DNA of 64,000 bases, taken from the NCBI GenBank assembly GCA_001800135.1, contig MGUU01000024.1, positions 31,844 through 95,843 of the forward strand. Direction: 5' to 3'. Below are positions 2,428-64,000 of the stretch, in pieces (position 1 is the first letter of the stretch; each line of letters starts with the position of its first letter). This stretch comes from Elusimicrobia bacterium RIFCSPLOWO2_02_FULL_39_32 (GTDB lineage Bacteria > Elusimicrobiota > Elusimicrobia > 2-02-FULL-39-32). The notes beneath the pieces were generated by a model, which was not told the DNA's origin, made no database searches, and worked only from the letters and a program-made list of their open reading frames with translations. The position numbers and the translations under genes are program-made.

Positions 2428-3630
2428 TTAGCCTCCTTTTTTAGGCGGAGCTATTTTTAAAAAATTTTTTATTCGTAACAAGGCATCATGAAAACGTTTG
2501 TCGTGCGTGACTAAAGCCATGCGGATAAATCCTTCCCCATAAGGTCCAAATCCTACCCCAGGAGAAACCGCAACCCCTGTTTCTTTAATGAGTCTTTCTG
2601 AAAAGCTAAGTGAGCCTTCCGTCTTAAAGGCCTCAGGCAGTTCTGCCCATAAATACATGGTGGCTTTGGGAGTAGGCACATCCCATCCCAGTTTAGCCAA
2701 CCCTTGAACCATAAAATCTCTTCTTTTTTGATATTTTAGCACAGTTTGTTGTACGCACTCCTGGCTTGATTTTAAAGCCCATGAAGCAGCTAACTGGATA
2801 AAGGTAGGGACTCCGTAATCTAAAAAGGATTTTAGTTTTTCAAAAGGAGCGATCCATTTTTCTCCTCCTACGGCAAAACCCACTCTCCACCCTGCCATAT
2901 TGTAAGTTTTAGAAAAAGAGAAAAATTCAATTCCCACATCTTTTGCGCCCGGCACTTGCAGGAAAGAAGGAGCCTCATACCCATCAAAAGTAATTTCTGA
3001 ATAAGCATTGTCGTGCGCTACTAGAATCTCATATTTTTTAGCAAAGTGAACCACTCTTTCGAAAAATTCCAAATTATCTACAGTGGCTGTAGTGGGGTTG
3101 TTGGGATAATTTAGAAATAAAATTTTTGCTTTTTTAGCGATTTTTTCAGGAATTTCTTCTAAATCCGGCAAATAGTTTTTGTCCTTTTTTAAAGGAACAA
3201 AATGAACTTTACCTCCTGTAAGATACACGCCGTTAAAGTGAACTGGGTAACCTGGATTCCCAACTAAAGCCAGATCATCAGGATTTAGATATGCCATGCA
3301 CAAATGCGCAATCCCTTCTTTGGAACCAATCAATGAAAGTATTTCTTTTTCCGGATTTAAAGAAACATGAAAGCGCTTTTCAAACCATTCTGCGATTGAA
3401 GCGCGAAATTTTGGCATGCCTTTTGCCTGCGGATAACGATGGGTTCTGGGATGATCTTTAATGGTTTCACAGAGCCGTTCTACAATATGGGGCGGTGTGG
3501 GAATATCTGGGTTTCCCATTCCTAAGTCAATCACATCTAATTTTTTTTTGTAAGCTTCCAGTTTAAGAAGATTAATTTTAGAAAGAAAATAGGGGGGCAG
3601 CTCTTGTAACTTTTTTGAAGGTTCTATCAC
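2428..3630 (-). CDS. alaC: Class I/II PLP aminotransferase (AlaC/YfdZ-like; DapL is the alternative)
   Basis: DLGMGNPD, NYPNNPT, HDNAY, SFSKTYNMAGWRVG; KSFLDYG is AlaC-like; GTG start. Confidence 0.7.
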   Translation of the reverse strand: MIEPSKKLQELPPYFLSKINLLKLEAYKKKLDVIDLGMGNPDIPTPPHIVERLCETIKDHPRTHRYPQAKGMPKFRASIAEWFEKRFHVSLNPEKEILSLIGSKEGIAHLCMAYLNPDDLALVGNPGYPVHFNGVYLTGGKVHFVPLKKDKNYLPDLEEIPEKIAKKAKILFLNYPNNPTTATVDNLEFFERVVHFAKKYEILVAHDNAYSEITFDGYEAPSFLQVPGAKDVGIEFFSFSKTYNMAGWRVGFAVGGEKWIAPFEKLKSFLDYGVPTFIQLAASWALKSSQECVQQTVLKYQKRRDFMVQGLAKLGWDVPTPKATMYLWAELPEAFKTEGSLSFSERLIKETGVAVSPGVGFGPYGEGFIRMALVTHDKRFHDALLRIKNFLKIAPPKKGG

Positions 3631-3637
3631 AGTTGGG

Positions 3638-3967
3638 TTATTTCAAAAAATCCGCGATCTCTTTTTTTTCTCGCACAATCCATTCAGGAAGAATTTTAGC
3701 ATATTCCCAACAAAGCAGAGCCATTCCTATGCAAGCCATGCCATAGGTAATTTCAAATCCGCTCCAGCGCAGCCACTGTTCTTGAGTAACAAAATCCCAT
3801 TTTTCTGGAGAATAGTAGTTCGCTTCCGGCTCGCCAAAAAACGCATGGTAAATTCCAGCAATTCCGACTATGCTTCCCCAAGAGGAAAAAATCCAGCCTG
3901 CAATTCTCACCAGCCCGCGGATCTTTACTTTTTCTTGAAGAGGTTTTAACTCTTGTATGTTTTCCAT
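3638..3967 (-). CDS. Hypothetical two-TM membrane protein
   Basis: 109-aa ORF, two hydrophobic segments, 7 bp upstream of the aminotransferase. Confidence 0.7.
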   Translation of the reverse strand: MENIQELKPLQEKVKIRGLVRIAGWIFSSWGSIVGIAGIYHAFFGEPEANYYSPEKWDFVTQEQWLRWSGFEITYGMACIGMALLCWEYAKILPEWIVREKKEIADFLK

Positions 3968-4364: not shown

Positions 4365-4493
4365 TTGATTTACCTAAATTTTTTCCTCATAAAAAAGTTC
4401 GTAAATAGTTTTAAATATTCTCTTGCTTTTTCGTTTTGAAAAATGGCGCTTTTTTCCATCTCAGTTCTTATTTTCATAAGAGCAATAGGCGAT

Positions 4494-5114
4494 TTAAAAG
4501 TTAAATTTGTTTAGATACGGCAGTTTGGATTTTACCAAATGAATCTCTTTTAGGCTAGAAAGAAGTTCGCCAGTAGAATTCCAACTCCCTTCAATCAGGG
4601 CTTTGCGCATTTGGGCAGGTTGTTGGACCAAGATGGAAAAATCTCCATAGGTTACTTCTAATTTTTCTAAATCAATTTTAATTTCACAAACTGGATCGTC
4701 TTCCACAAAATTCATCAGATTTTCTATGTCTTCTTTTTTGGCTGTTACTAAAGGCAGTCCTAGAGCAGTGCAGTTATCTGAAAAAATCTCTGCAAAAGAT
4801 TCTCCAATCAGGGCTTTAATCCCATAGCGCAAGAGCGACTGCGGGGCATGTTCTCTGGAGGAGCCGCAGCCAAAGTTTCTATTGACTACCATGATGGTTG
4901 CTCCCTCATATTTTTTTTCATTGAGAGTATGCTCTTTTTTTGAACCGTTTTCATTAAAGCGAACATCGTAAAAAAGGTATTCTCCTAATTTGTCAAAAGT
5001 AACGCATTTCAAATAGCGCGCAGGAATGATGCGGTCTGTGTCTAAGTCATTGCCTTTTAAAGGAATTCCTGGCCCAGAGACAAAAGAGATTTTTTTTATT
5101 TCAGTTGGGTTCAT
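4494..5114 (-). CDS. leuD: 3-isopropylmalate dehydratase small subunit
   Basis: [32 protein letters not shown]. Confidence 0.95.
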
Positions 5115-25100: not shown

Positions 25101-25242
25101 ATTATAGCTAGGTTCCTCTAACTATTCTTCAACTTTTTGTAACAAATTTGTAACACTTTTTGTAACGCTTTTTTCCGTTACAAAATTGTTACAAAAATGT
25201 CACAAAAAGTTTAAGATCAAACGACCTGTTTTGCCGTATAAT
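25101..25242. promoter_or_regulatory. Divergent promoter pair with 3+3 inverted array of TGTAAC boxes at ~11-bp spacing
   Basis: TGTAAC at 25138, 25149, 25161; GTTACA/GTCACA at 25177, 25188, 25199; TATAAT on - strand at 25101-25106 and on + strand at 25237-25242. Confidence 0.7.
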
Positions 25243-55409: not shown

Positions 55410-56522
55410 ATGAATTTTAATCAACTTATTTCTGCCATTGAAACGACTCATCACTCCATGCAAGGGCAAGCAGCACAAAGCGTTAATACAGCTTTAACGC
55501 TTCGGAATTGGCTGATTGGATATTACATTGTTGAATTTGAACAGAAAGGACAGGATCGAGCTATCTATGGGAAACAGCTTCTTAAACTCCTTGCGGACAA
55601 ACTACAAGCCAAAAAAATTAAAGGCATTTCCCAGACTAACTTAATTCTTTATCGTCAATTTTATGTTGTTTATCCTCAAATTTATCAGACAGTGTCCAAT
55701 AAATTGAGTGGTACAAAATCACTGTCCACGATCCCAAAAAACCAAGTCCAGATTTATCAGACAGTGTCTGATAAATTAAGTATTGTTCCGAACCTGCTTC
55801 TCAAACGCCTAACTTTTTCTCATTTTGTAGAATTAGTAAAAGTTGAATATCCGCTCAAGAGAACCTTTTATGAATCTCAATGTATTAAATCAAACTGGTC
55901 TGTTCGTGAACTTAAACGTCAGATTGGCAGCCTTCTTTTTGAGCGAACAGGAAAATCTAAAAATAAGAAGAGTTTTCTTAAAAAACTTCAAAAATTACCT
56001 TTAAGTCCGGAAGAAATCATAAAAAATCCTTACGTCTTTGAGTTTTTAAACTTAGAAGAAAAAAGTGAATACACCGAAAGTCTTTTGGAAACGGAACTGG
56101 TTGATCATCTGCAAAAATTCTTGCTCGAGCTGGGTAGAGGTTTTTGTTTTGAAGCGCGTCAGAAACGCATTACGGTTAATAACCAACATTATTATATTGA
56201 TTTAGTTTTCTACCACCGTATTTTAAAATGTCATGTGCTGATTGATTTAAAAGTTCGAGAGTTTGCCCACACCGATGCAGGTCAAATGAATTTTTATTTA
56301 AATTACATGAATGAAAACGAAATGGAGAAAAACGACAATCCTCCAGTAGGGATTATTCTTTGCACTCATGACAATAAAGCTGAAGTCAAATACGCTACTG
56401 CTGGCATAAATAACCGATTATTTGTTTCGCGCTATATGCTACAACTCCCAACCGAGAATGAACTGAAAGCATTTCTTCAAAAAGACATTCAGGTATTAAA
56501 CGAAGAAAACACTGGAAAATAG
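55410..56522 (+). CDS. YhcG/DUF1016 PD-(D/E)xK nuclease-domain protein
   Basis: RNWLIGYYIVE, WSVREL.RQI, KNPYVFEFL, FLLELGRGF, IDLVFYHR.LKC.VLIDLK, GQMNFYL. Confidence 0.92.
   Translation: MNFNQLISAIETTHHSMQGQAAQSVNTALTLRNWLIGYYIVEFEQKGQDRAIYGKQLLKLLADKLQAKKIKGISQTNLILYRQFYVVYPQIYQTVSNKLSGTKSLSTIPKNQVQIYQTVSDKLSIVPNLLLKRLTFSHFVELVKVEYPLKRTFYESQCIKSNWSVRELKRQIGSLLFERTGKSKNKKSFLKKLQKLPLSPEEIIKNPYVFEFLNLEEKSEYTESLLETELVDHLQKFLLELGRGFCFEARQKRITVNNQHYYIDLVFYHRILKCHVLIDLKVREFAHTDAGQMNFYLNYMNENEMEKNDNPPVGIILCTHDNKAEVKYATAGINNRLFVSRYMLQLPTENELKAFLQKDIQVLNEENTGK
55679..55776. repeat. Two palindromic ~25-bp repeats inside the YhcG coding sequence
   Basis: ATTTATCAGACA-G-TGTCTGATAAAT (55752-55776, perfect) and a 2-mismatch copy at 55679-55705. 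Confidence 0.85.
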
Positions 56523-56699
56523 TCTTGAAATTGTTTTAGAAAGAATCCTAGTTTGTTTATAGTTTTAGAGTTGGTCAGAATAGTTCCAATATTGTCCTGT
56601 TAGGGAACACCAATTTTTTTATGGATACTTCTATTTAGTTAGCAATAAGCTTACATTTTAGGATTGAGTAGTTATTAGTTACTTTAAAAGGAGAAGGAA

Positions 56700-56834
56700 A
56701 TGGCAAATGACAATTATTCATATAAAAAGAAACAAAAAGAATTGGCAAGAAAAAAAAGACAAGAAGAAAAGAAGCAAGACAAATTAAACAGAAAAAACTT
56801 ACAGGCTAAAACAGATTCTTTGCAAATTCAATAA
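56700..56834 (+). CDS. Small basic protein (44 aa), absent from ORF track
   Basis: AGGAG RBS; MANDNYSYKKKQKELARKKRQEEKKQDKLNRKNLQAKTDSLQIQ. Confidence 0.65.
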   Translation: MANDNYSYKKKQKELARKKRQEEKKQDKLNRKNLQAKTDSLQIQ

Positions 56835-56910
56835 GAAATTCATTTTAGAATAAAAAATTGCGTAAAGTGATAGTAATAAAATAGAACTAAAAATCAATAG
56901 GAGGCTAACT

Positions 56911-57063
56911 ATGCCATACCAAGATAACTTCGGTGGACCGCGGGAGATGCATAAAGCAATTTGCGCGGAGTGTAAGAAAGAATGCGATGTCCCTTTTAAG
57001 CCCAGCGGGAATCGTCCCGTATATTGCAAGGATTGTTACTCCAAGCGTAAAGGTTCTCGTTAA
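56911..57063 (+). CDS. CxxC-x17-CxxC zinc-ribbon protein (50 aa), absent from ORF track
   Basis: AGGAGG RBS; REMHKAICAECKKECDVPFKPSGNRPVYCKDCY. Confidence 0.9.
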   Translation: MPYQDNFGGPREMHKAICAECKKECDVPFKPSGNRPVYCKDCYSKRKGSR

Positions 57064-57065
57064 TA

Positions 57066-57088
57066 AGACCCCACTTTAAGTGGGGTCT
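57066..57088 (+). terminator. Hairpin after the CxxC gene
   Basis: AGACCCCACT-TTA-AGTGGGGTCT 10-bp stem; weak U-tract. Confidence 0.55.
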
Positions 57089-57106
57089 CTTAAAGAGTCA
57101 GTCCGC

Positions 57107-58672
57107 ATGACCGTTTCTTCTGTTGAGATTAACGGGCAATTCCAAAAAGCTTTGGACGGGATAGAGTCCAAAAAAAATCTTTTTATCACTGGCAAGGCTG
57201 GTACAGGTAAATCCACTCTTCTCAATTATTTTCGGCAACACACTCAACGTAAAGTCGTGGTGCTGGCTCCGACTGGAGTCGCGGCCCTTAATGTGCAGGG
57301 CGAAACTATCCATTCCTTTTTCGGTTTCAAACCTGATATTACGTTTGAGAAAATCAAAAAATTAAAAGAGAGGAGAGCCCGCCTTTACCAAGAAATCGAA
57401 GCGATTATCATAGATGAAATTTCCATGGTTCGCGCTGATTTACTGGATTATGTGGACCGGTTTCTGCGTTTGAATGCTAAATCATCTAGGCTTCCGTTCG
57501 GAGGTGTACAGATGATCCTGATTGGCGATCTGTACCAACTTCCTCCTGTTGTCATTTCTAAAGAAAAAAAGATTTTTGAGACACAGTATGAAAGCCCTTA
57601 CTTTTTTGATTCGCAGCTCTTTCGCGCTCATCCAATGGAGATGATCGAACTTGAGAAAGTATATCGTCAAAAAGATCAGCGTTTCATCAAACTGTTGAAT
57701 GCGATCCGCAATAACACCATTACCGAGGATCAGTTGCAGAACTTAAACTCAAGGGTGGGAGCAAAACTCGCTCCTGTTAAAGAGACAGACTACACCATTC
57801 ATCTAACTCCGACTAATGCCATGGCTGCTGAAATTAACGCAGAACACTTAAGCCGTCTCAAGGAGCAAGTCCATACCTATTCTGCCCTGATTTCAGGACG
57901 GTTCGAGAGCCATGCCCATCCTGCGGATGAGAAGCTTCAAATGGCAGCGGAAGCGCAGGTCATGCTTTTAAATAATGATTCCAGCGGGCGGTGGGTGAAT
58001 GGCACACTGGGCAGGGTGGAAGCGATCGAGTACGACCATGAAACGGGCGAAGACATCATTCAGGTGAGGCTCTCCAACGGACTCATAGAAGATGTCCAGC
58101 CATATACTTGGGATATATTTCATTTTACATTTAACAGTGAGAGACAAATAATAGAGACAGAGACTTTGGGCTCATTCAGGCAGTATCCCTTAAAACTAGC
58201 ATGGGCCGTAACCATTCATAAGAGCCAAGGGAAGACATTTGATCGTGTGGTAATTAATATGGGACACGGGGCTTTTGCGCACGGACAAACTTATGTGGCA
58301 TTAAGCCGATGCAGATCCCTGGAAGGCATGAGCTTTGTAAAACCTGTGCAAAAAACGCACATTTGGACTGACTGGAGGATTGTCCGGTTCATGACGCGCC
58401 ACCAATACGAAGATTCCGAGCAGAAGTTGCCGCTAAACCAGAAACTCGAAACAATTCAAAAAGCGATTGAGAGTGAATCCCATTTAGACATCGTTTACTT
58501 AAAGGCAACCGATGACAAAACACGGCGCACTATTATCCCACGCGAAGTCGGACCTATGGAATACCAAGGCAAATCTTTTACTGGGCTCGCAGCCTATTGC
58601 CTAAAACGCAGGGATGAACGCGTTTTCCGTGTGGACCGGATTCTAGAGATGAAAGTGGTAGAGAGAAAATGA
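57107..58672 (+). CDS. Pif1-family SF1B helicase with C-terminal WYL domain
   Basis: GKAGTGKS, APTGVAA, IIDEISM, GDLYQLPP, TIHKSQG, YVALSR; C-term AYCLKRRDERVFRVDRI; ATG 57107. Confidence 0.9.
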   Translation: MTVSSVEINGQFQKALDGIESKKNLFITGKAGTGKSTLLNYFRQHTQRKVVVLAPTGVAALNVQGETIHSFFGFKPDITFEKIKKLKERRARLYQEIEAIIIDEISMVRADLLDYVDRFLRLNAKSSRLPFGGVQMILIGDLYQLPPVVISKEKKIFETQYESPYFFDSQLFRAHPMEMIELEKVYRQKDQRFIKLLNAIRNNTITEDQLQNLNSRVGAKLAPVKETDYTIHLTPTNAMAAEINAEHLSRLKEQVHTYSALISGRFESHAHPADEKLQMAAEAQVMLLNNDSSGRWVNGTLGRVEAIEYDHETGEDIIQVRLSNGLIEDVQPYTWDIFHFTFNSERQIIETETLGSFRQYPLKLAWAVTIHKSQGKTFDRVVINMGHGAFAHGQTYVALSRCRSLEGMSFVKPVQKTHIWTDWRIVRFMTRHQYEDSEQKLPLNQKLETIQKAIESESHLDIVYLKATDDKTRRTIIPREVGPMEYQGKSFTGLAAYCLKRRDERVFRVDRILEMKVVERK

Positions 58673-58689
58673 ACCACTTCGATGGGAGG

Positions 58690-58953
58690 CTATGCTGCGT
58701 GATGTAAGAGAGTTTCATTGATAATCGTCTGATAGCCTATTCCCTTCTTTTTAGCTTGAGTTCGTGCCCATTGAATAGCTTTTGGATGCAATCGAATGTG
58801 AATATCTTGATACTTGTCTTGTTCTTTTGGTGGACGGCCGCGCGATCGGCGTTTGATGTGAAAAGTCTTCTCGATAGCTTCTCGAAACATCTGGTTCTCT
58901 TGAGGAGTAACTCTCCGCGCTTTAGAAAAGTTAAACTCTCTTATTTTCTTCAT
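58690..58953 (-). CDS. brnA: BrnA antitoxin
   Basis: EFNFSKARR, RGRP, IHIRL, GIGYQTIINETL; ATG 58953 overlaps the toxin end. Confidence 0.85.
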   Translation of the reverse strand: MKKIREFNFSKARRVTPQENQMFREAIEKTFHIKRRSRGRPPKEQDKYQDIHIRLHPKAIQWARTQAKKKGIGYQTIINETLLHHAA

Positions 58954-59215
58954 AGGATCTCCTTTCTTTATGATTAGCTCTGCGGGCACTAATAATCCTT
59001 ATCGTTTGACCCGGAGGACGTATTGTAAACACCACAACCAGTACACTGGTGACTGAATCCCCAATTAACCATTGCCTGGTCTCGTGGGCGGAATGTTTTG
59101 AGTCTTCCATGATAAGAGCATATGGATCATCGAATGCAAAAGTAGCGGTCTTAAAGCTGATTCCATGTTTGAGGGCATTTCTTTTTGCCTTTTCATTGTT
59201 CCATTCAAACGTCAT
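58931..59215 (-). CDS. brnT: BrnT toxin
   Basis: FEWNNEKA.RN..KHGISF, LVVVFT, IRIISARRA; ATG 59215. Confidence 0.92.
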   Translation of the reverse strand: MTFEWNNEKAKRNALKHGISFKTATFAFDDPYALIMEDSKHSAHETRQWLIGDSVTSVLVVVFTIRPPGQTIRIISARRANHKERRSYEENKRV

Positions 59216-59250
59216 ATTTATAGTGTACACAGAAATTAGCCGAATGTCAA
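59216..59250 (-). promoter_or_regulatory. brnTA promoter (leaderless geometry)
   Basis: TTGACA-N17-TACACT-N6-ATG on the minus strand. Confidence 0.7.
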
Positions 59251-59523
59251 GTTCCACATGAGCGGCATCTCCACAGAACATCTTAGCTTTTTTCCTTTTC
59301 ATTCTATTTTGGTTTGTTTCTTTTAATTGCTATGGGTTCTGTCGTTGGCAAACAAATTCTGCCTTTAAGCCGGTAACTTTTGCCTTCAAATGGAACGATA
59401 TTAGTGGGTTTGGGTTTGATCTCTGGGAACTGAGCAACCTTTGTCTCGTCACTAGTCTCTTTAGGTTGAGTGCATTTTGCTTCTCCTCTACTCTCTGTAG
59501 GTTGAGCGCTCTCTGCTGTCTGA

Positions 59524-59988
59524 GCAGCCTCGCGCTGGCTGGATGTTTTAGAAACTTTCCATTATCATTTTAGGATATACCCATTTGCACGAGTTCCTTA
59601 TCGTTCTCTTAAAAAAGTTCCAAAGCTATACCTATGTGACTGGTCGGAAGTTTCCAACGAAGCCGCCCGTTTTGAAAATATGGTTGCCTCTCACTTCTTT
59701 AAATTCGTCAGCTGGTGGCATGACCGTGAAGGTTACAAGGCAAAGCTATATTTCTTGCGTGATTCTTCCCATCGGGAAGTAGATTTTTTGGTGACCGTTG
59801 ATGAAAAACCATGGTTTGCAGTTGAAGTTAAAATGGAAGATGACAGCATCTCGTCTAATTTAAAATATTTTCAAGAAAGGTTAAAAATTCCTTTTGTTTA
59901 CCAGGGTGTGAGAAAAAAAGGGGTTGATAGATTTATAAATGGGATTCGAATTATTTCTGCTGATAAGCTGCTTGTTGGGTTAGTTTGA
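59524..59988 (+). pseudogene. C-terminal remnant of AAA_14/DUF4143 ATPase-nuclease
   Basis: Frame open from TGA 59521: SRWLDVLE..RSLKKVPKLYLCDWS..ARFENMVA..REVDF..AVEVK; N-terminal ATPase missing. Confidence 0.75.
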
Positions 59989-59998
59989 TCAGAATAGG

Positions 59999-62900
59999 TT
60001 ATGCTTGGAATTTAAAATGTAAGGTTTGTCTGTGATATTCTTCTGTTTTGTTTAATTCTAACCCTAGTGTCTCTTTTTGAAGAATAAGTTCATTATCTTT
60101 AAATAGAATTTTTCCATTTTTTCCTGATAGTTTTCCTTGCAGCATATTTTTTAATATTTTTAATTCTTTGCCTCTTACTTTTAGTTCATCTCCAGAGCTT
60201 AAAGTTATAGCCCACTTTACAGTCTGTTTCCAATACTCATTTTCAGGCCGATCTGTAAATAGAGTAACAATGGATGCGTTTTTTTCTATTGCAAGATTTA
60301 CCGCCTGTTCTGGCGTTTGAACTGTAAAGAGCACCATCTCTTCTGGAATTTCTAACTCAAGCAACATGGTCTGAATGATTCTTTTTGCCTGATTTGATTG
60401 CACAATAAACCCGATCTTAGGATTTCGGTTGTTTTCAGAACTAGAGTGAAGAGAGATAAATTTTACTAGACCTAGGATCCAATCCTGATATTTTTGAGGT
60501 AGATCAAAACCATCTTCTTCTATTGCCATATCTTCTGGAAAATCAATGAGATGGAGCGGAAATTGTTTTGTATTAGATTCAGCCTGAATCGCAGCCTGAT
60601 TGATTTGGTAAGAACCATAAGAAAAGGGTGAGAGCTCTTGTTTTACAATTAACTCAATCTCATTTTCAATTTTTTCTTTAGTTTTAGTGATATTCTTCTC
60701 TGACTCATTGGAATTTTTTGGATGGGAGTTTAAAGAAGGCGTAAGCAATTCAGGAAGCAAATTTTTAAGCAGCGCTGCGCTATAAAGACCATGAGCTAGA
60801 ACCACAATAAAGTAGGGAACCAGATGGTTTAAGATAGAAGATGGCAGCGGCAGAAAGTTGAGAGAGACTATGTAGATAAGACTAAATAGTAAGGCAGGGA
60901 TTAGATATTTAATAAAATTGGGCCAATCCTCTTTTTCTTTGTAGTTCCAAAGAAGAATACCTTTATCCCAGTTTTGATCGTTCGCTCTTATGACCCATCT
61001 TACCATGATGTGAGAAAGGGCAAAGCCAAAGGTCATCCAACCAAGTAAGGAGGAGGTATATAATAATTCTTGAGTATTAAAACCTAAACTGCTGATTAAA
61101 ATAATAGGAAGAACTCTAAACAGCGTTTCCTCCCAGATGGGCGCAACTACTTTTGGTTCTCCTAACCAGTAGAGAAGGTTATGGAACCGTTCTCCAAGAT
61201 GAGAAGGATTGCGAATTCGTCCTTTTAAGTAATAGGGGTAAAAAATTGAAGCTGGGATTCCTCCATTTCTGAACTCTGCTAAAAATTGAGTTCTTGTATG
61301 AGCTTTTGTTTCAGATTCTGCAATGTCGTCCGCGCTATAGCGAATAGTCTCTGGCCCATTTCTTCCATGCCGTCCTATGAATCGTTCTAGAACTTGCTGC
61401 ATTTTGGCAGGCACGTCTCGGGTGGATTCAGCCCATACTCCTTGACCTTTATGGTAGAGATCTAAAATCAGTTCAGCTCCTTTTCCTATTCCAAGCCCAA
61501 CCACCACAATATGAGGTTTACTGTTAATCCATTTTCTAAATCTGTCGCGGCTGAACTGGAAGTTAGGATCTCCATCGGAAAAATGAATTACAAGATTTAA
61601 TGTGTTTTTTTCTTTTAAAGGAATTCTTTTAAAAGCATGGTACATGGCTCTTAGATCATTATTCCCAAGATATGTCTTAGCCACCTTACTCATCACTTCT
61701 ACAACTTTTTGTTTGTTGAGTTTTTCTCCATACTTAAAATAGAATTCCATGGGTAGATTATCATGGAATCCAACCACTTCTAATATAATTCCTTTTTTCT
61801 GGTCCTCTTGGATAGCAAGAAGCATCATCAATACAGCATCTGCCGCTGCTTCAATCTTAGCCCCATCCATACTTCCGCTCTGGTCAATTAAAAGAGATAT
61901 TCTGACTTTATATTGTTTTGGAATTTTTCTTTGCTTAAAGATCAGATCCTCGCCCGCTACAGCTAAAGGCAGCGCCGCATCATCCAGCATTCCTTTTTCT
62001 CTCCACCTCTGCCAATATCCCACCTGTCTTTGATAGAACTTCCTAAACACAGTTTTCATTCGGTTCACATCTGTTTGCACTCTTTCGTAACGCGCATTGT
62101 AATCAGCCTGTTCTTTTTCTGTGATTCCTTCTCGATCTCTTTCTTCTTTATCTCTTTTTGCAGCTTCCTCCTCTTCTTCCAAGCGTTTTTGTTCCTGTTC
62201 TTCATCATAACGATCCTGTTCTTCTTGCGCCCTTTCAATGGATTCTTTAAGGGATTGGATCGCTTCTTTTAATTTATCTTTGTCTAACGGATTTCCATCT
62301 TCGCCGACCATTAAGGGTGGAGCTATCTCTGGCCGATTTTTATCTTTTTCCCCTAATTCTTGTTTAGCTTGCTTAAGTAACTCTAATTTTTCTTCTGGAC
62401 TTAAACTGTCCCAAGCTTTTTTTAACTGCTGCAACAACTCCTTTTTTTCTTGGTCTGACAGTTTTTCCCATGGAATTCTATCTCCAGCTTCTTTTCCTTC
62501 TCCTCCTTTTCCTCCTGCAATTGCTTTAGATTGAGCTTTGTCTTCTATAGATTTCTGAACCAAAGCTTGGAATTCTTCTGTGTCATAGAGTTCTTCCATC
62601 TTTTTTTTGTGTTCAGCCACCTCTTTTGTTAAATAAACCTCTTTTGCGCGATCTTGTAAAGTCTCAATCGCATCTAAAACTTGCTGGTTAAGAATCGTTG
62701 GATCTTTTTTTCCATAGACCCATTCATAGATGACCCCTAATGTAAATTGAAAATATAAAGGTTGTTGCGCCATAAGAATTTGGTGTTCTTCCAGGCTTTT
62801 ACCATAACGGGTAGGAGAATAGGTTTCATCATATCTTGCCATCAGCCAGTTGCGGCTGCCTACAAAATCTTCAATACCTTTGAGATTGATCCAAATATCT

Positions 62901-64000
62901 CCAACTCCATTATCTAAGAGAGCAGCGCCCAGTTTAGATAAGAATTCGCTGCTGGATGCTTCTGGATGGCGATAGAGAAGTTCAAATAGTTCATGATAAA
63001 GAACTCCTAAAACACTTTCTTCACTTCCAGGCTGAATCATATCTTCTGCTACGAAATTCATCTCTCTGGGTTTCATATCTTTTGTATTCCATATGCACCG
63101 CCATGTCCTCATCATTCCCAATTCACCTGCTTCAGGAATAGGGTACCATGCTTTTAAAGGTATGCCCAATCCTGTTGTGATTTGCATGACTCTTTCTAAT
63201 ACCCGTCTCCTTTCTCTAGCTCTTCCTTGATCTTGTAAGGAAGGGTTGCCAACCTCCCACCATCTTTCTGGATTATATTTTTCTTCTCCATCTTCATCCT
63301 TATTCCCAGTTGCTAAATTCATGGAAAGAGCTGCTACAGCTCCTATTTTTGTGACTGCTCTAAGCGCAACATTTTTTGCTATAGGAACAACTTTTTTAAA
63401 AGTTTTGCCAAATTCTTTTGCGAGCAGCGCCACTGCTAAAGATTCTCTCTCTGCTTTTGGTCTTAATGCCATTCCCATTTTTTGTTCTAAAAGTTCTATA
63501 GGATCTTGGTTAGGATAATGCTTGATACTTTCAACGATTCGTTCTAAAGCGCGGAAGGATGGTTTTTTAAGACTTGTTTTTCTCATGTTATTCGCGTAAG
63601 AAACCAATGTTTCAATATCTTTTCTTAAAATTTCATTCCCTTTTCCAGCAATTCTCATCAAGAGATCCACTTCTTCCTCTTCTGGCAAATACCCTATCTC
63701 TACCCCATACATTCTGTCCATAAAGTCCGCCATCATGTCGTTCACTTCCACTCTTCCTCCCGGAGGGTTCATGGTCATCACTAAACTAAATCCCTGTTTA
63801 GCTTTAATTCTATTAGTAAGAATCTTTCTGCCATCAGGCAATGTGAGTTCTATTTCTCTAGGCAATATCAGCTCTTTAAACTGTAACGCGTGGTTCAATA
63901 CTGCTAAGACTCCGGGAGTGGCTCTATTGACTTCATCTGCAATAAAGGGTCTTCCTTCTAACATGGCTCGAGCGAGTGGAGACAGTTCATAATCTGTGGA
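59999..64000 (-). CDS. Large multidomain protein, 5'-partial: MoxR/midasin-type AAA+, peptidase-like, coiled coil, VWA, CPBP-like TM module, C-terminal domain
   Basis: Frame stays open to 64000 (STDYELSPLARAM); FIADEVNRA Walker B, TMNP, DRM; DQSGS MIDAS; APIWEETLFR. Confidence 0.85.
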   Translation of the reverse strand, partial: STDYELSPLARAMLEGRPFIADEVNRATPGVLAVLNHALQFKELILPREIELTLPDGRKILTNRIKAKQGFSLVMTMNPPGGRVEVNDMMADFMDRMYGVEIGYLPEEEEVDLLMRIAGKGNEILRKDIETLVSYANNMRKTSLKKPSFRALERIVESIKHYPNQDPIELLEQKMGMALRPKAERESLAVALLAKEFGKTFKKVVPIAKNVALRAVTKIGAVAALSMNLATGNKDEDGEEKYNPERWWEVGNPSLQDQGRARERRRVLERVMQITTGLGIPLKAWYPIPEAGELGMMRTWRCIWNTKDMKPREMNFVAEDMIQPGSEESVLGVLYHELFELLYRHPEASSSEFLSKLGAALLDNGVGDIWINLKGIEDFVGSRNWLMARYDETYSPTRYGKSLEEHQILMAQQPLYFQFTLGVIYEWVYGKKDPTILNQQVLDAIETLQDRAKEVYLTKEVAEHKKKMEELYDTEEFQALVQKSIEDKAQSKAIAGGKGGEGKEAGDRIPWEKLSDQEKKELLQQLKKAWDSLSPEEKLELLKQAKQELGEKDKNRPEIAPPLMVGEDGNPLDKDKLKEAIQSLKESIERAQEEQDRYDEEQEQKRLEEEEEAAKRDKEERDREGITEKEQADYNARYERVQTDVNRMKTVFRKFYQRQVGYWQRWREKGMLDDAALPLAVAGEDLIFKQRKIPKQYKVRISLLIDQSGSMDGAKIEAAADAVLMMLLAIQEDQKKGIILEVVGFHDNLPMEFYFKYGEKLNKQKVVEVMSKVAKTYLGNNDLRAMYHAFKRIPLKEKNTLNLVIHFSDGDPNFQFSRDRFRKWINSKPHIVVVGLGIGKGAELILDLYHKGQGVWAESTRDVPAKMQQVLERFIGRHGRNGPETIRYSADDIAESETKAHTRTQFLAEFRNGGIPASIFYPYYLKGRIRNPSHLGERFHNLLYWLGEPKVVAPIWEETLFRVLPIILISSLGFNTQELLYTSSLLGWMTFGFALSHIMVRWVIRANDQNWDKGILLWNYKEKEDWPNFIKYLIPALLFSLIYIVSLNFLPLPSSILNHLVPYFIVVLAHGLYSAALLKNLLPELLTPSLNSHPKNSNESEKNITKTKEKIENEIELIVKQELSPFSYGSYQINQAAIQAESNTKQFPLHLIDFPEDMAIEEDGFDLPQKYQDWILGLVKFISLHSSSENNRNPKIGFIVQSNQAKRIIQTMLLELEIPEEMVLFTVQTPEQAVNLAIEKNASIVTLFTDRPENEYWKQTVKWAITLSSGDELKVRGKELKILKNMLQGKLSGKNGKILFKDNELILQKETLGLELNKTEEYHRQTLHFKFQA

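Follow-up and report, generated by a model that had tools for sequence, protein, structure and literature searches.

A giant gene of an Elusimicrobia bacterium predicted to encode a membrane-tethered MoxR-VWA motor with four AAA_5 units

The locus described here raises the question of what kind of machine is encoded by a giant gene that runs off the right edge of a 64,000-nucleotide (nt) stretch of the genome of Elusimicrobia bacterium RIFCSPLOWO2_02_FULL_39_32 (assembly GCA_001800135.1, contig MGUU01000024.1, positions 31,844 to 95,843; hereafter the window, G000:C24:31844-95843, where G000 is the source genome and C11, C16, C17, C18, C19, C20, C22 and C24 are contigs of it). The 3' part of the gene occupies 59999..64000 on the minus strand, 4,002 nt comprising its last 1,333 codons and the stop at 59999-60001; the open reading frame (ORF) is open at the window edge, as the original prediction had noted, and the ORF listing and translation give 1,333 codons without a stop (P0001). 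We consider an ATP-driven protein remodeller or processor at the inner membrane face to be the likeliest identity of the product. More precisely, we propose a membrane-tethered remodelling protein in which a cytoplasmic MoxR-VWA motor is combined with docking propellers and with a CPBP-like module serving as tether and possibly as protease, a reading to which we assign a probability of roughly 0.55.

The frame stays open past the window, through G000:C24:95844-99776 to the end of C24, giving 2,644 amino acids (aa; P0002) with no start yet. The end of C19 carries the start of a gene, and the AAA_5 unit encoded there shares 89% identity with the second unit of P0002. Residues 1-430 of P0002 retrieved a metagenome contig (L031) that has gltB, gltD and a Fic gene upstream, as does C19. 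The 1,543-aa ORF of this contig (P0153) matches all 642 residues of the C19 part, and 488 residues of P0002, without a single difference. Because both overlaps are identical, L031 bridges the C19 and C24 parts into one gene. The right end of C18, where a 4,332-aa ORF ends in WD40 blades, was considered as the upstream half and rejected, since L031 joins C19 to C24 identically. The joined gene has 3,699 codons without a stop, counted from the first in-frame TTG, and 2,366 of them lie beyond window position 64000; full-length residue numbers below count from that TTG and equal the P0001 residue plus 2,366. The TTG lies inside a conserved DNA box described below, which makes the ATG pair at codons 29 and 30 (MMIYFW) the likely start, for a protein of about 3,670 aa.

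This is a real gene under purifying selection and not a chance ORF. Its ortholog in the genome of a sister species of the same genus (G001) shows 92% amino-acid identity and no stops, and the ratio dN/dS between the two is 0.21 over 1,259 codons and 0.14–0.32 per module. A Logan contig from sequencing run X6 (3,730 nt, 0 differences) spans the region from the stop codon to the AAA domain. Matches with expectation values (E) up to 1e-8 were found in 10 of the 61 genomes searched, the source genome included.

Read from its N-terminus, the protein comprises a hydrophobic leader (residues 46-64), a second hydrophobic helix (186-208) with a very basic stretch after it, an N-domain without family that contains HELYH (about 215-495), the AAA_5 unit B' with its lid (505 to about 770), seven WD40 blades of the type 'IQFSPDG' (780-1100), the AAA_5 units A1 (about 1167-1480) and B (1485-1770), ten WD40 blades of the type 'FTWSNDG' (1784-2240) and the AAA_5 unit A2 (about 2290-2615), inside which the window begins. 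There follow a zincin-like domain (2615-2855), a K/E-rich linker (2855-3045), a VWA domain (3045-3270), the CPBP-like module (3270-3475) and a tail domain (3475-3699).

The four AAA_5 units belong to two alternating types, in the order B'-A1-B-A2, and all score above the Pfam cut-off of 22 bits (PF07728). The three whole units on C24 reach 72–80 bits and the C19 part, in which B' is cut by the contig end, 73.7 bits, with E per unit from 2e-20 to 2e-22; the partial A2 unit in the window, which comprises the C-terminal two thirds of the domain and a helical lid (63254..64000, minus strand; Pfam AAA_5 and motif alignment), still scores 35 bits (E 1.7e-08). The A units carry GPVGTGKS, FIADEV, TMN and DRM, and have long insertions both after helix 2 and ahead of sensor 1, while the B units carry GEAGVGKD, IIIDEV, TMN and DRF. 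Walker B DE, sensor 1 TMN and an arginine finger (DRF or DRM) are thus present in all four units, and a full Walker A GKS in A1 and A2 only; the Walker B of A2 (FIADEV, 63929-63946, minus strand) and its sensor 1 TMN correspond to the AAA motifs reported by the original prediction. Among solved structures, midasin is the top relative of these units (E 3.9e-28, summed over six domains), followed by NorQ and CbbQ, and the best single-domain score is 31.3 bits for midasin versus 33 bits for NorQ. Because the midasin score sums six domains, we claim membership of the MoxR class and no special kinship with midasin. The lid of A1 also matches CbbQ_C (E 0.00019), and in the PHROGs database the AAA units match phrog_249, a CobS-like family named 'porphyrin biosynthesis' (E 1.3e-23).

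Each of the two WD40 arrays sits between a B-type unit and the following A-type unit. Seven blades, as in the first array, is the usual propeller size; the ten-blade array is unusual and may be an assembly effect. Mean DNA identity among blades is 89% within the first array and 83% within the second, compared to 53% between the arrays, and the amino-acid changes are concentrated at repeat positions 9-13 and 26-30, which we take to be the top-face loop positions of the WD40 fold.

The part of the protein that lies between the last ATPase unit and the membrane module resembles the VWA partners of MoxR ATPases. When residues 2595-3699 were compared with 1.84 billion representative proteins, 351 matched at E<=0.001, 34 at <=1e-10 and 14 at <=1e-30, many of them 600-900 aa long and collinear with the segment from zincin-like domain to VWA. 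In P0005, P0012, P0020 and P0022 this segment is preceded by AAA_5, and in P0010, P0019 and P0014 by AAA_5 and WD40, such that P0010 and P0019 are fusions of AAA_5, WD40, an HExxH domain and VWA. The original prediction had noted that MoxR ATPases and VWA partners are usually separate genes in bacteria; among the relatives found, fused AAA-VWA proteins are not rare.

The first element of this segment is a degenerate zincin-like domain (62534..63256, minus strand; dN/dS 0.14), identified by family alignment as the N-domain of CobT-like VWA partners. The predicted HELFE lies exactly at 62981-62995 (minus strand), and 17 of the 21 relatives that cover the motif region have HExxH there; about 30 residues further on, most aligned relatives have (E/D)DPRVN where this protein has GDIWIN. 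The description of the domain as peptidase-like thus stands, but in this protein the site is degenerate. No model in Pfam, NCBIfam or PHROGs covers the domain. Relative P0020 touches Pfam CobT, and the HExxH domain of relative P0009 resembles phage protein clusters (score 0.96), one of which has PF06213 CobT in 20% of its members. The domain is followed by a K/E/D-rich linker (61964..62536, minus strand), the charged coiled coil of the original prediction, which from its sequence is probably helical and which the profile search pairs with the acidic tracts of CobT and midasin.

The VWA domain itself (61289..61966, minus strand) exceeds the cut-offs of two Pfam models, PF00092 with 29.4 bits versus 23.8 and VWA_2 PF13519 with 27.3 versus 27, so that both the AAA_5 and the VWA assignments withstand comparison with family models. 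A metal ion-dependent adhesion site (MIDAS) consists of the residues DxSxS ... T ... D. Here the predicted DQSGS and SDG fall at 61871-61885 and 61571-61579 (minus strand) in the corresponding motif columns, and the final Asp is kept. A profile built from this protein and 22 relatives of its zincin-like-to-VWA part (the A2 alignment, not to be confused with the A2 unit) matches, among solved chains, CobT (9uka_G, 8.8e-32), midasin (8.7e-19) and NorD (9e-12); profile positions 228-604 align with midasin 4377-4785, a score that low-complexity charge may inflate. CobT_C is matched at E up to 0.05 by 17 of the 23 aligned sequences, this protein among them (E 0.022), though its own 13.3–16.3 bits are below the 21-bit cut-off, and the VWA domain matches the CobT family of PHROGs, phrog_17276 (E 7.7e-09).

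Following the VWA domain is a four-helix membrane module that resembles the CPBP (Rce1/Abi-type) family (60674..61291, minus strand). It contains four hydrophobic stretches, two of them over the hydropathy threshold, and the motifs EETLFR (61115-61132), FALSH (61010-61024) and HGLYS (60779-60793, all minus strand); the motifs of CPBP proteins are EExxxR, FxxxH and HxxxB (B standing for D or N), according to the available text of PMC13692083. An iterated search found the module in eight other giant ORFs of the source genome (nine copies) and in several metagenome proteins, and WEExxFR, FxxSH and HxxxN are conserved among these paralogs and relatives, most of which have HxxxN. Two sites in the genome pass the Pfam cut-off for the Rce1-like family (PF02517, 22.4 bits), namely the paralogous module of C17 (25.5 bits) and a separate site in the 6,542-aa ORF of C16 (25 bits). 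A profile of eight modules aligned by hhalign with a true CPBP protein of the same genome at only E 0.0029 and a probability of 10.7%, with motifs 1 and 2 in register, and gave no match to a second true CPBP protein. As in the families Rce1, Abi, MroQ and SpdC, EExxxR and FxxxH lie in successive helices and the module family has Hxxx(N) in a later helix; unlike these, the module has a long insert between motifs 2 and 3 and is embedded in giant chains rather than forming a small free-standing protein. We therefore describe it as CPBP-like by motifs and transitive homology, and as a candidate protease or tether. The prediction of a CPBP-like module is supported by EETLFR and FALSH, by HGLYS except for its Ser at the N/D position, and by the paralog over the cut-off, but not by the score of the module itself.

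The protein ends in a domain of about 225 aa (60002..60676, minus strand; dN/dS 0.16) that is common to P0006, P0011, P0126 and a 1,330-aa ORF on C22. It has no Pfam family, and the protein atlas gave leads only at 0.80 (helicase C-terminal-like clusters), which were not used. A 53-residue fragment at G000:C11:90115-90273 is 72% identical to the extreme C-terminus of the protein and contains one TGA; it looks like the remnant of a second copy. P0006, a metagenome protein of 1,961 aa, shares the leader region (its residues 7-117) and the CPBP module with tail (1588-1961) but has a different middle. The two ends, leader on one side and CPBP module plus tail on the other, may thus be a frame into which different cargo is placed.

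The N-terminus and the upstream DNA connect this gene to a set of giant genes in the same genome. The leader, formed by the first 50–75 residues, reads MIxFWxxKxNRxWLQxTA..SFLFTTVSAPFAQA followed by NLWxERRKAVEE (L031 7475-7680, residues 30 to about 95); in this protein it is MIYFWNK...APAYA, compared to a family consensus of MIxFW...PFAxA. In an iterated search, in which some drift is possible, it was found at the extreme N-terminus of 25 other ORFs of the source genome, 23 of which are at least 1,000 aa long, including the 6,091-aa neighbour in the window (independent E 6.5e-08) and a 7,356-aa ORF at the start of C24. Its sequence, which has an AxA-type site, suggests a signal peptide or anchor specific to this family. 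Upstream lies a composite box, GTT[AG]CA-N5-GTT[AG]CA-..-A[AG]TT.[AG]AGA, with an 11-bp phasing and the typical form GTTACAAAAATGTTACAAAAAGTTGAAGAAAAGTT, which occurs in 21 copies genome-wide. In fourteen cases an ORF of 1,000 aa or more comes within the next 300 nt; among the remaining seven, one is the start of this gene on C19, and three others lie 375 nt before a 6,542-aa ORF or before a small ORF that precedes one of 11,491 aa. The copy belonging to this gene (C19:15847-15875, or L014 7848-7876) has its end some 65 nt ahead of the ATG. TGTAAC boxes that stand in groups of two or more show a similar distribution: of 28 such clusters, 15 are no more than 400 nt from the upstream edge of an ORF of 1,000 aa or more, and five TGTAAC boxes stand at window 25138-25193, before the 6,091-aa gene. 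The box is probably a promoter or operator of a giant-gene regulon.

Since leader and upstream box are shared, we place this gene in the same class as its 6,091-aa neighbour, as the original prediction had proposed. The kinship is one of leader and GTTACA/TGTAAC box, and does not extend to any catalytic or cargo module: the neighbour contains Metallophos, methyltransferase and HEAT domains, and ten pieces of the present protein, searched against it, gave no match there. Retrieval of the upstream sequence thus revealed 3,699 codons, four AAA units, the leader and the box, in place of a start shortly beyond 64000 and a protein with nothing in common with its neighbour.

Several further observations concern this class of genes. 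The box at window 25138-25193 is bidirectional, lying between a 1,089-aa gene on the minus strand and the 6,091-aa gene on the plus strand. Stop-to-stop ORFs of at least 1,000 aa number 71 and make up 29% of the 2.52-Mb genome, the longest (18,984 aa, on C20) being open at the contig end. The 4,332-aa ORF of C18 (L020, G000:C18:103429-116425), also open at the contig end, has the same leader and box and is a paralogous mosaic in a different order, with 12 NHL repeats, an HExxE-type domain, VWA and two AAA_5 units followed by WD40.

The A1-B pair was matched at E up to 1e-10 by seven proteins in the length class 1,454–4,627 aa, including a JGI protein named 'MoxR-like ATPase/WD40 repeat protein' and the closest full-length relative, P0004 from Methanosalsum zhilinae DSM 4017, which has 3,261 aa and six AAA_5 units and is 54% identical over A1-B. 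A locus search based on P0004 found only its copy in a Methanosalsum metagenome-assembled genome (L038, L039; 88–90% identity). P0004, to which P0154 and P0156 are related, shows the same alternation of B and A units and the same GKD in the B units, and also has WD40 between a B and an A unit, the same HExxE-type domain, a charged linker and VWA. It differs in having six units and a single propeller region, in lacking leader, transmembrane (TM) segment and CPBP module, in ending after VWA, and in being archaeal. That the closest relative of this bacterial protein is archaeal suggests, on the sequence comparison, transfer between domains.

Among characterised proteins, midasin (Rea1/MDN1) has a similar layout, with several AAA_5 units, a charged tract and a MIDAS on the C-terminal side in one chain, and it is the second match of the VWA profile after CobT. 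It differs in having six units where this protein has four, and here there are propellers between the units, the chain is predicted to be membrane-bound with a CPBP-like module, and none of it was shown to correspond to the midasin linker domain. The midasin-like AAA...MIDAS chain of the original prediction is therefore confirmed as regards several AAA units and a MIDAS in one chain, but with four units, and these no closer to midasin than to NorQ. On the sequences compared, the concatenation is a similarity of layout and gives no evidence of common descent. NorQ-NorD and CbbQ-CbbO are equally near per AAA domain (NorQ 33 bits), and NorD matches the VWA profile. Those systems are homo-hexamers of one small ATPase with a separate VWA protein, serving a known enzyme, whereas here the units are concatenated, of two types, and have propellers between them.

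We propose the following mechanism. The bulk of the protein would lie in the cytoplasm, anchored by the leader, acting as signal-anchor, and by the TM helix, because ATPases need ATP, a basic stretch follows helix 186-208, and the four helices of the CPBP-like module keep its two flanks on the same side. The VWA domain would hold an acidic residue of a putative client through its MIDAS, and the AAA units, ringed within or between chains, would pull on the VWA linker and so remodel or extract the client, as in NorQD, CobST and midasin. The mechanism is modelled on NorQD, for which the accessible text describes a VWA finger in the pore of the AAA hexamer and a remodelled VWA linker (PMC13036017), and on CobST as outlined in the available part of a preprint (bioRxiv 10.64898/2026.10.09.757910). 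The two propellers, whose blades differ mainly at surface loops, would dock client or partners. The CPBP-like module would tether the machine and may also cleave either its client or the giant chain, which would make the whole an ATP-dependent membrane processing machine comparable to FtsH.

A number of observations weigh against this proposal. With regard to the motor, GKD replaces GK[ST] in the Walker A of B' and B; because all three B units of P0004 also have GKD, we regard this as a conserved deviation. The joined chain has only four AAA units, which cannot close a six-membered ring in one chain, and since only two B-A pairs are present such a ring needs more than one chain or the units of another protein; that the C18 paralog, with two AAA_5 units, supplies them is pure speculation. 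Short-read assemblies could give too few blades, and in principle too few AAA units: assemblies break within the repeated AAA/WD units in three places (C24, C19 and C9 of G001), and the Logan contigs of four runs are only short pieces over locus coordinates L003 4571-7500, where depth gives no copy number. The zincin-like site lacks its second His, which is Glu here, as well as the Glu of ED, and the Thr column of the MIDAS is Asn, here and in P0005, while most relatives have Thr. The degenerate zincin-like state is common to P0005 and the G001 ortholog, and because the degenerate motifs are identical in these two we interpret them as conserved states.

With regard to the membrane, the topology was derived from a hydropathy scan only, and the leader resembles a cleavable Sec signal with an AxA site. 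If helix 186-208 were not a true TM segment, the bulk of the protein would be outside the cell, where ATPases would be senseless. The module scores below the cut-off of PF02517 (11.6 bits, E 0.36, with the whole window part; 14.5 bits alone), the probability given by hhalign is only 10.7%, motif 3 has Ser at position B in the source genome as well as in G001, and non-catalytic CPBP proteins exist, as is stated in the part of PMC13692083 available. Finally, among the 20 sequencing runs listed as holding the gene there is no RNA dataset.

A bolder version of the same proposal goes further than we would at present defend, and we consider it doubtful: that prokaryotic concatenated MoxR motors arose independently of midasin and dynein from a B-A pair as block, and that the one described here was welded to a CPBP protease for handling or cutting the giants of a regulon of about 20 genes. 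The B-A pair would then be a building block, of which three form a built-in ring in P0004 while the two present here combine between chains.

Of the different functions that the same architecture might serve, the one that fares best is a role in conflict or immunity, in which the WD40 blades would recognise invaders, the MoxR-VWA part would set a threshold, and the CPBP module or tail would be the effector or immunity part. NTP-dependent ternary conflict systems were proposed by Kaur, Burroughs, Iyer and Aravind in 2020, and the available text of that paper places a MoxR-vWA couple at the centre of predicted conflict systems; in one class of them MoxR, vWA and beta-propeller come together near the membrane, as here (PMC7159879). 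The near-identical blades, with variation concentrated in two loop stretches, would suit a recognition surface, the 3' neighbours of the gene include BrnT/BrnA, a PIF1+WYL helicase and a YhcG nuclease, and some contigs of runs X6 and X7 diverge from the 3' flank directly after the stop codon. However, the ternary systems, as described in the same text, have separate genes, a propeller of about four blades after the vWA domain and the P-loop GxxxTAKS (PMC7159879), and the post-vWA propeller and this P-loop are absent here. The bpMoxR family PF20030 scores 13.8–14.9 bits against a cut-off of 27, and PADLOC returned no defence family save a weak mad8 match on the AAA units (E 8.4e-05). Box and leader are moreover those of some 20 giants with metabolic-type cargo, which argues for a shared cell-biological role and not for a defence island. 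We judge a conflict sensor to be unlikely.

The 3' flank is described here for its own sake. Between the stop of the gene and window position 55410 (55410-59988) there are a DUF4143 fragment, a BrnT/BrnA toxin-antitoxin pair, a PIF1-like helicase-WYL fusion and a YhcG-type nuclease. Since some X6 and X7 contigs diverge at L003 837 (window 59993), this flank is polymorphic in the population.

It might also be asked whether the giants are exported or injected polyproteins, sent out by their leader, maybe into a host or prey with ATP, where CPBP-like modules would insert into the membrane or cut themselves to free the cargo. The conserved PFAxA leader at 25 other ORFs (23 of at least 1,000 aa), the internal position of CPBP-like modules in eight other giant ORFs and the 29% of the genome given over to ORFs of at least 1,000 aa are all compatible with this, and giant genes were linked to predation by West-Roberts et al., to judge from the available portion of their preprint (bioRxiv 10.1101/2023.11.21.568195). 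Nevertheless, helix 186-208 and the strongly basic residues after it are what would be expected of a chain that turns back into the cytoplasm, the CPBP module with its four helices leaves both flanks on the same side, the cleavage is purely hypothetical, and no link to a secretion system turned up, although no search was aimed at one. We consider export to be improbable, and a good deal less credible than a cytoplasmic motor.

Still more doubtful is a chelatase-type motor for metal or cofactor insertion, resembling CobST, NorQD or CbbQO and serving a membrane enzyme complex. Its attraction lies in the likeness to CobS-CobT and to CobS/CobT-like pairs of phages (phrog_249, phrog_17276, phrog_5298), in which AAA_5 is likewise joined by a partner composed of N-domain, acidic linker and C-terminal VWA; of all named families, such CobS/CobT-like MoxR-VWA pairs stand nearest to this protein. 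Among solved chains CobT fits the VWA profile best (8.8e-32) and NorD is matched also, the lid of A1 matches CbbQ_C (E 0.00019), and the matching PHROGs are named 'porphyrin biosynthesis' and 'CobT'. Unlike CobS-CobT, however, this protein unites four ATPase units, two propellers and a membrane module in a single chain, and the HExxH N-domain of the profile fails to align with the N-terminus of solved CobT. The NCBIfam model for CobT (TIGR01651) scores 16.2 bits against a cut-off of 759, that for CobS (TIGR01650) is also far below its cut-off, as no NCBIfam model was close to being passed by any part, no chelatase or NOR genes adjoin the locus, and chelatase-type systems have nothing corresponding to the propellers, the CPBP module or the giant-gene box. 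The CobN/ChlH family (PF02514) was not found in the 97% complete source genome, while a control search found it in 5 of 14 genomes, and for this reason a chelatase role is unlikely.

Finally, we dismiss the explanation that the gene is a repeat chimera of the assembly or a functionless, decaying relic, which the contig breaks within AAA/WD units, the short Logan contigs over L003 4571-7500 and several degenerate catalytic-type motifs might suggest, as barely credible for a frame of 3,699 codons without a stop whose overlaps of 642 and 488 aa are identical, whose ortholog is 92% identical with a dN/dS of 0.21, and whose degenerate motifs are the same in G001 and P0005.

The membrane-tethered MoxR-VWA remodeller that we prefer bears on how such motors are built in prokaryotes. 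The textbook view is that these ATPase units were joined into one chain early in eukaryotic history, and the available text of PMC3495828 has six tandem AAA units arising at that stage. This gene, together with its archaeal and bacterial relatives, shows that prokaryotes have arrays of four to six units in a single chain, with propellers and a VWA adaptor, and the combination of four AAA units, propellers, VWA and membrane module on one chain is a rare prokaryotic design that resembles midasin. In the literature searched, the phrases 'bacterial midasin' and 'prokaryotic midasin' did not occur and no paper joined Methanosalsum with midasin; a 2023 preprint on Omnitrophota, in the part available, mentions AAA_5 only in a supplementary figure legend. 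The MoxR-VWA motor is thus of a known kind, while this variant is without description in that literature.

MoxR-VWA motors are widespread, yet few of them have a known client. The present case offers a four-unit form, a CPBP-like tail, an archaeal nearest relative and a link to a set of giant genes that bear a common box and leader. It links the motor to the giant genes of small-genome groundwater bacteria, a repertoire that is poorly understood, and it provides two handles on that repertoire, the shared upstream DNA box and the shared leader peptide. If the proposed reading is true and the CPBP-like module cuts, this organism would possess an ATP-dependent membrane processing machine that follows the logic of FtsH with wholly different parts.

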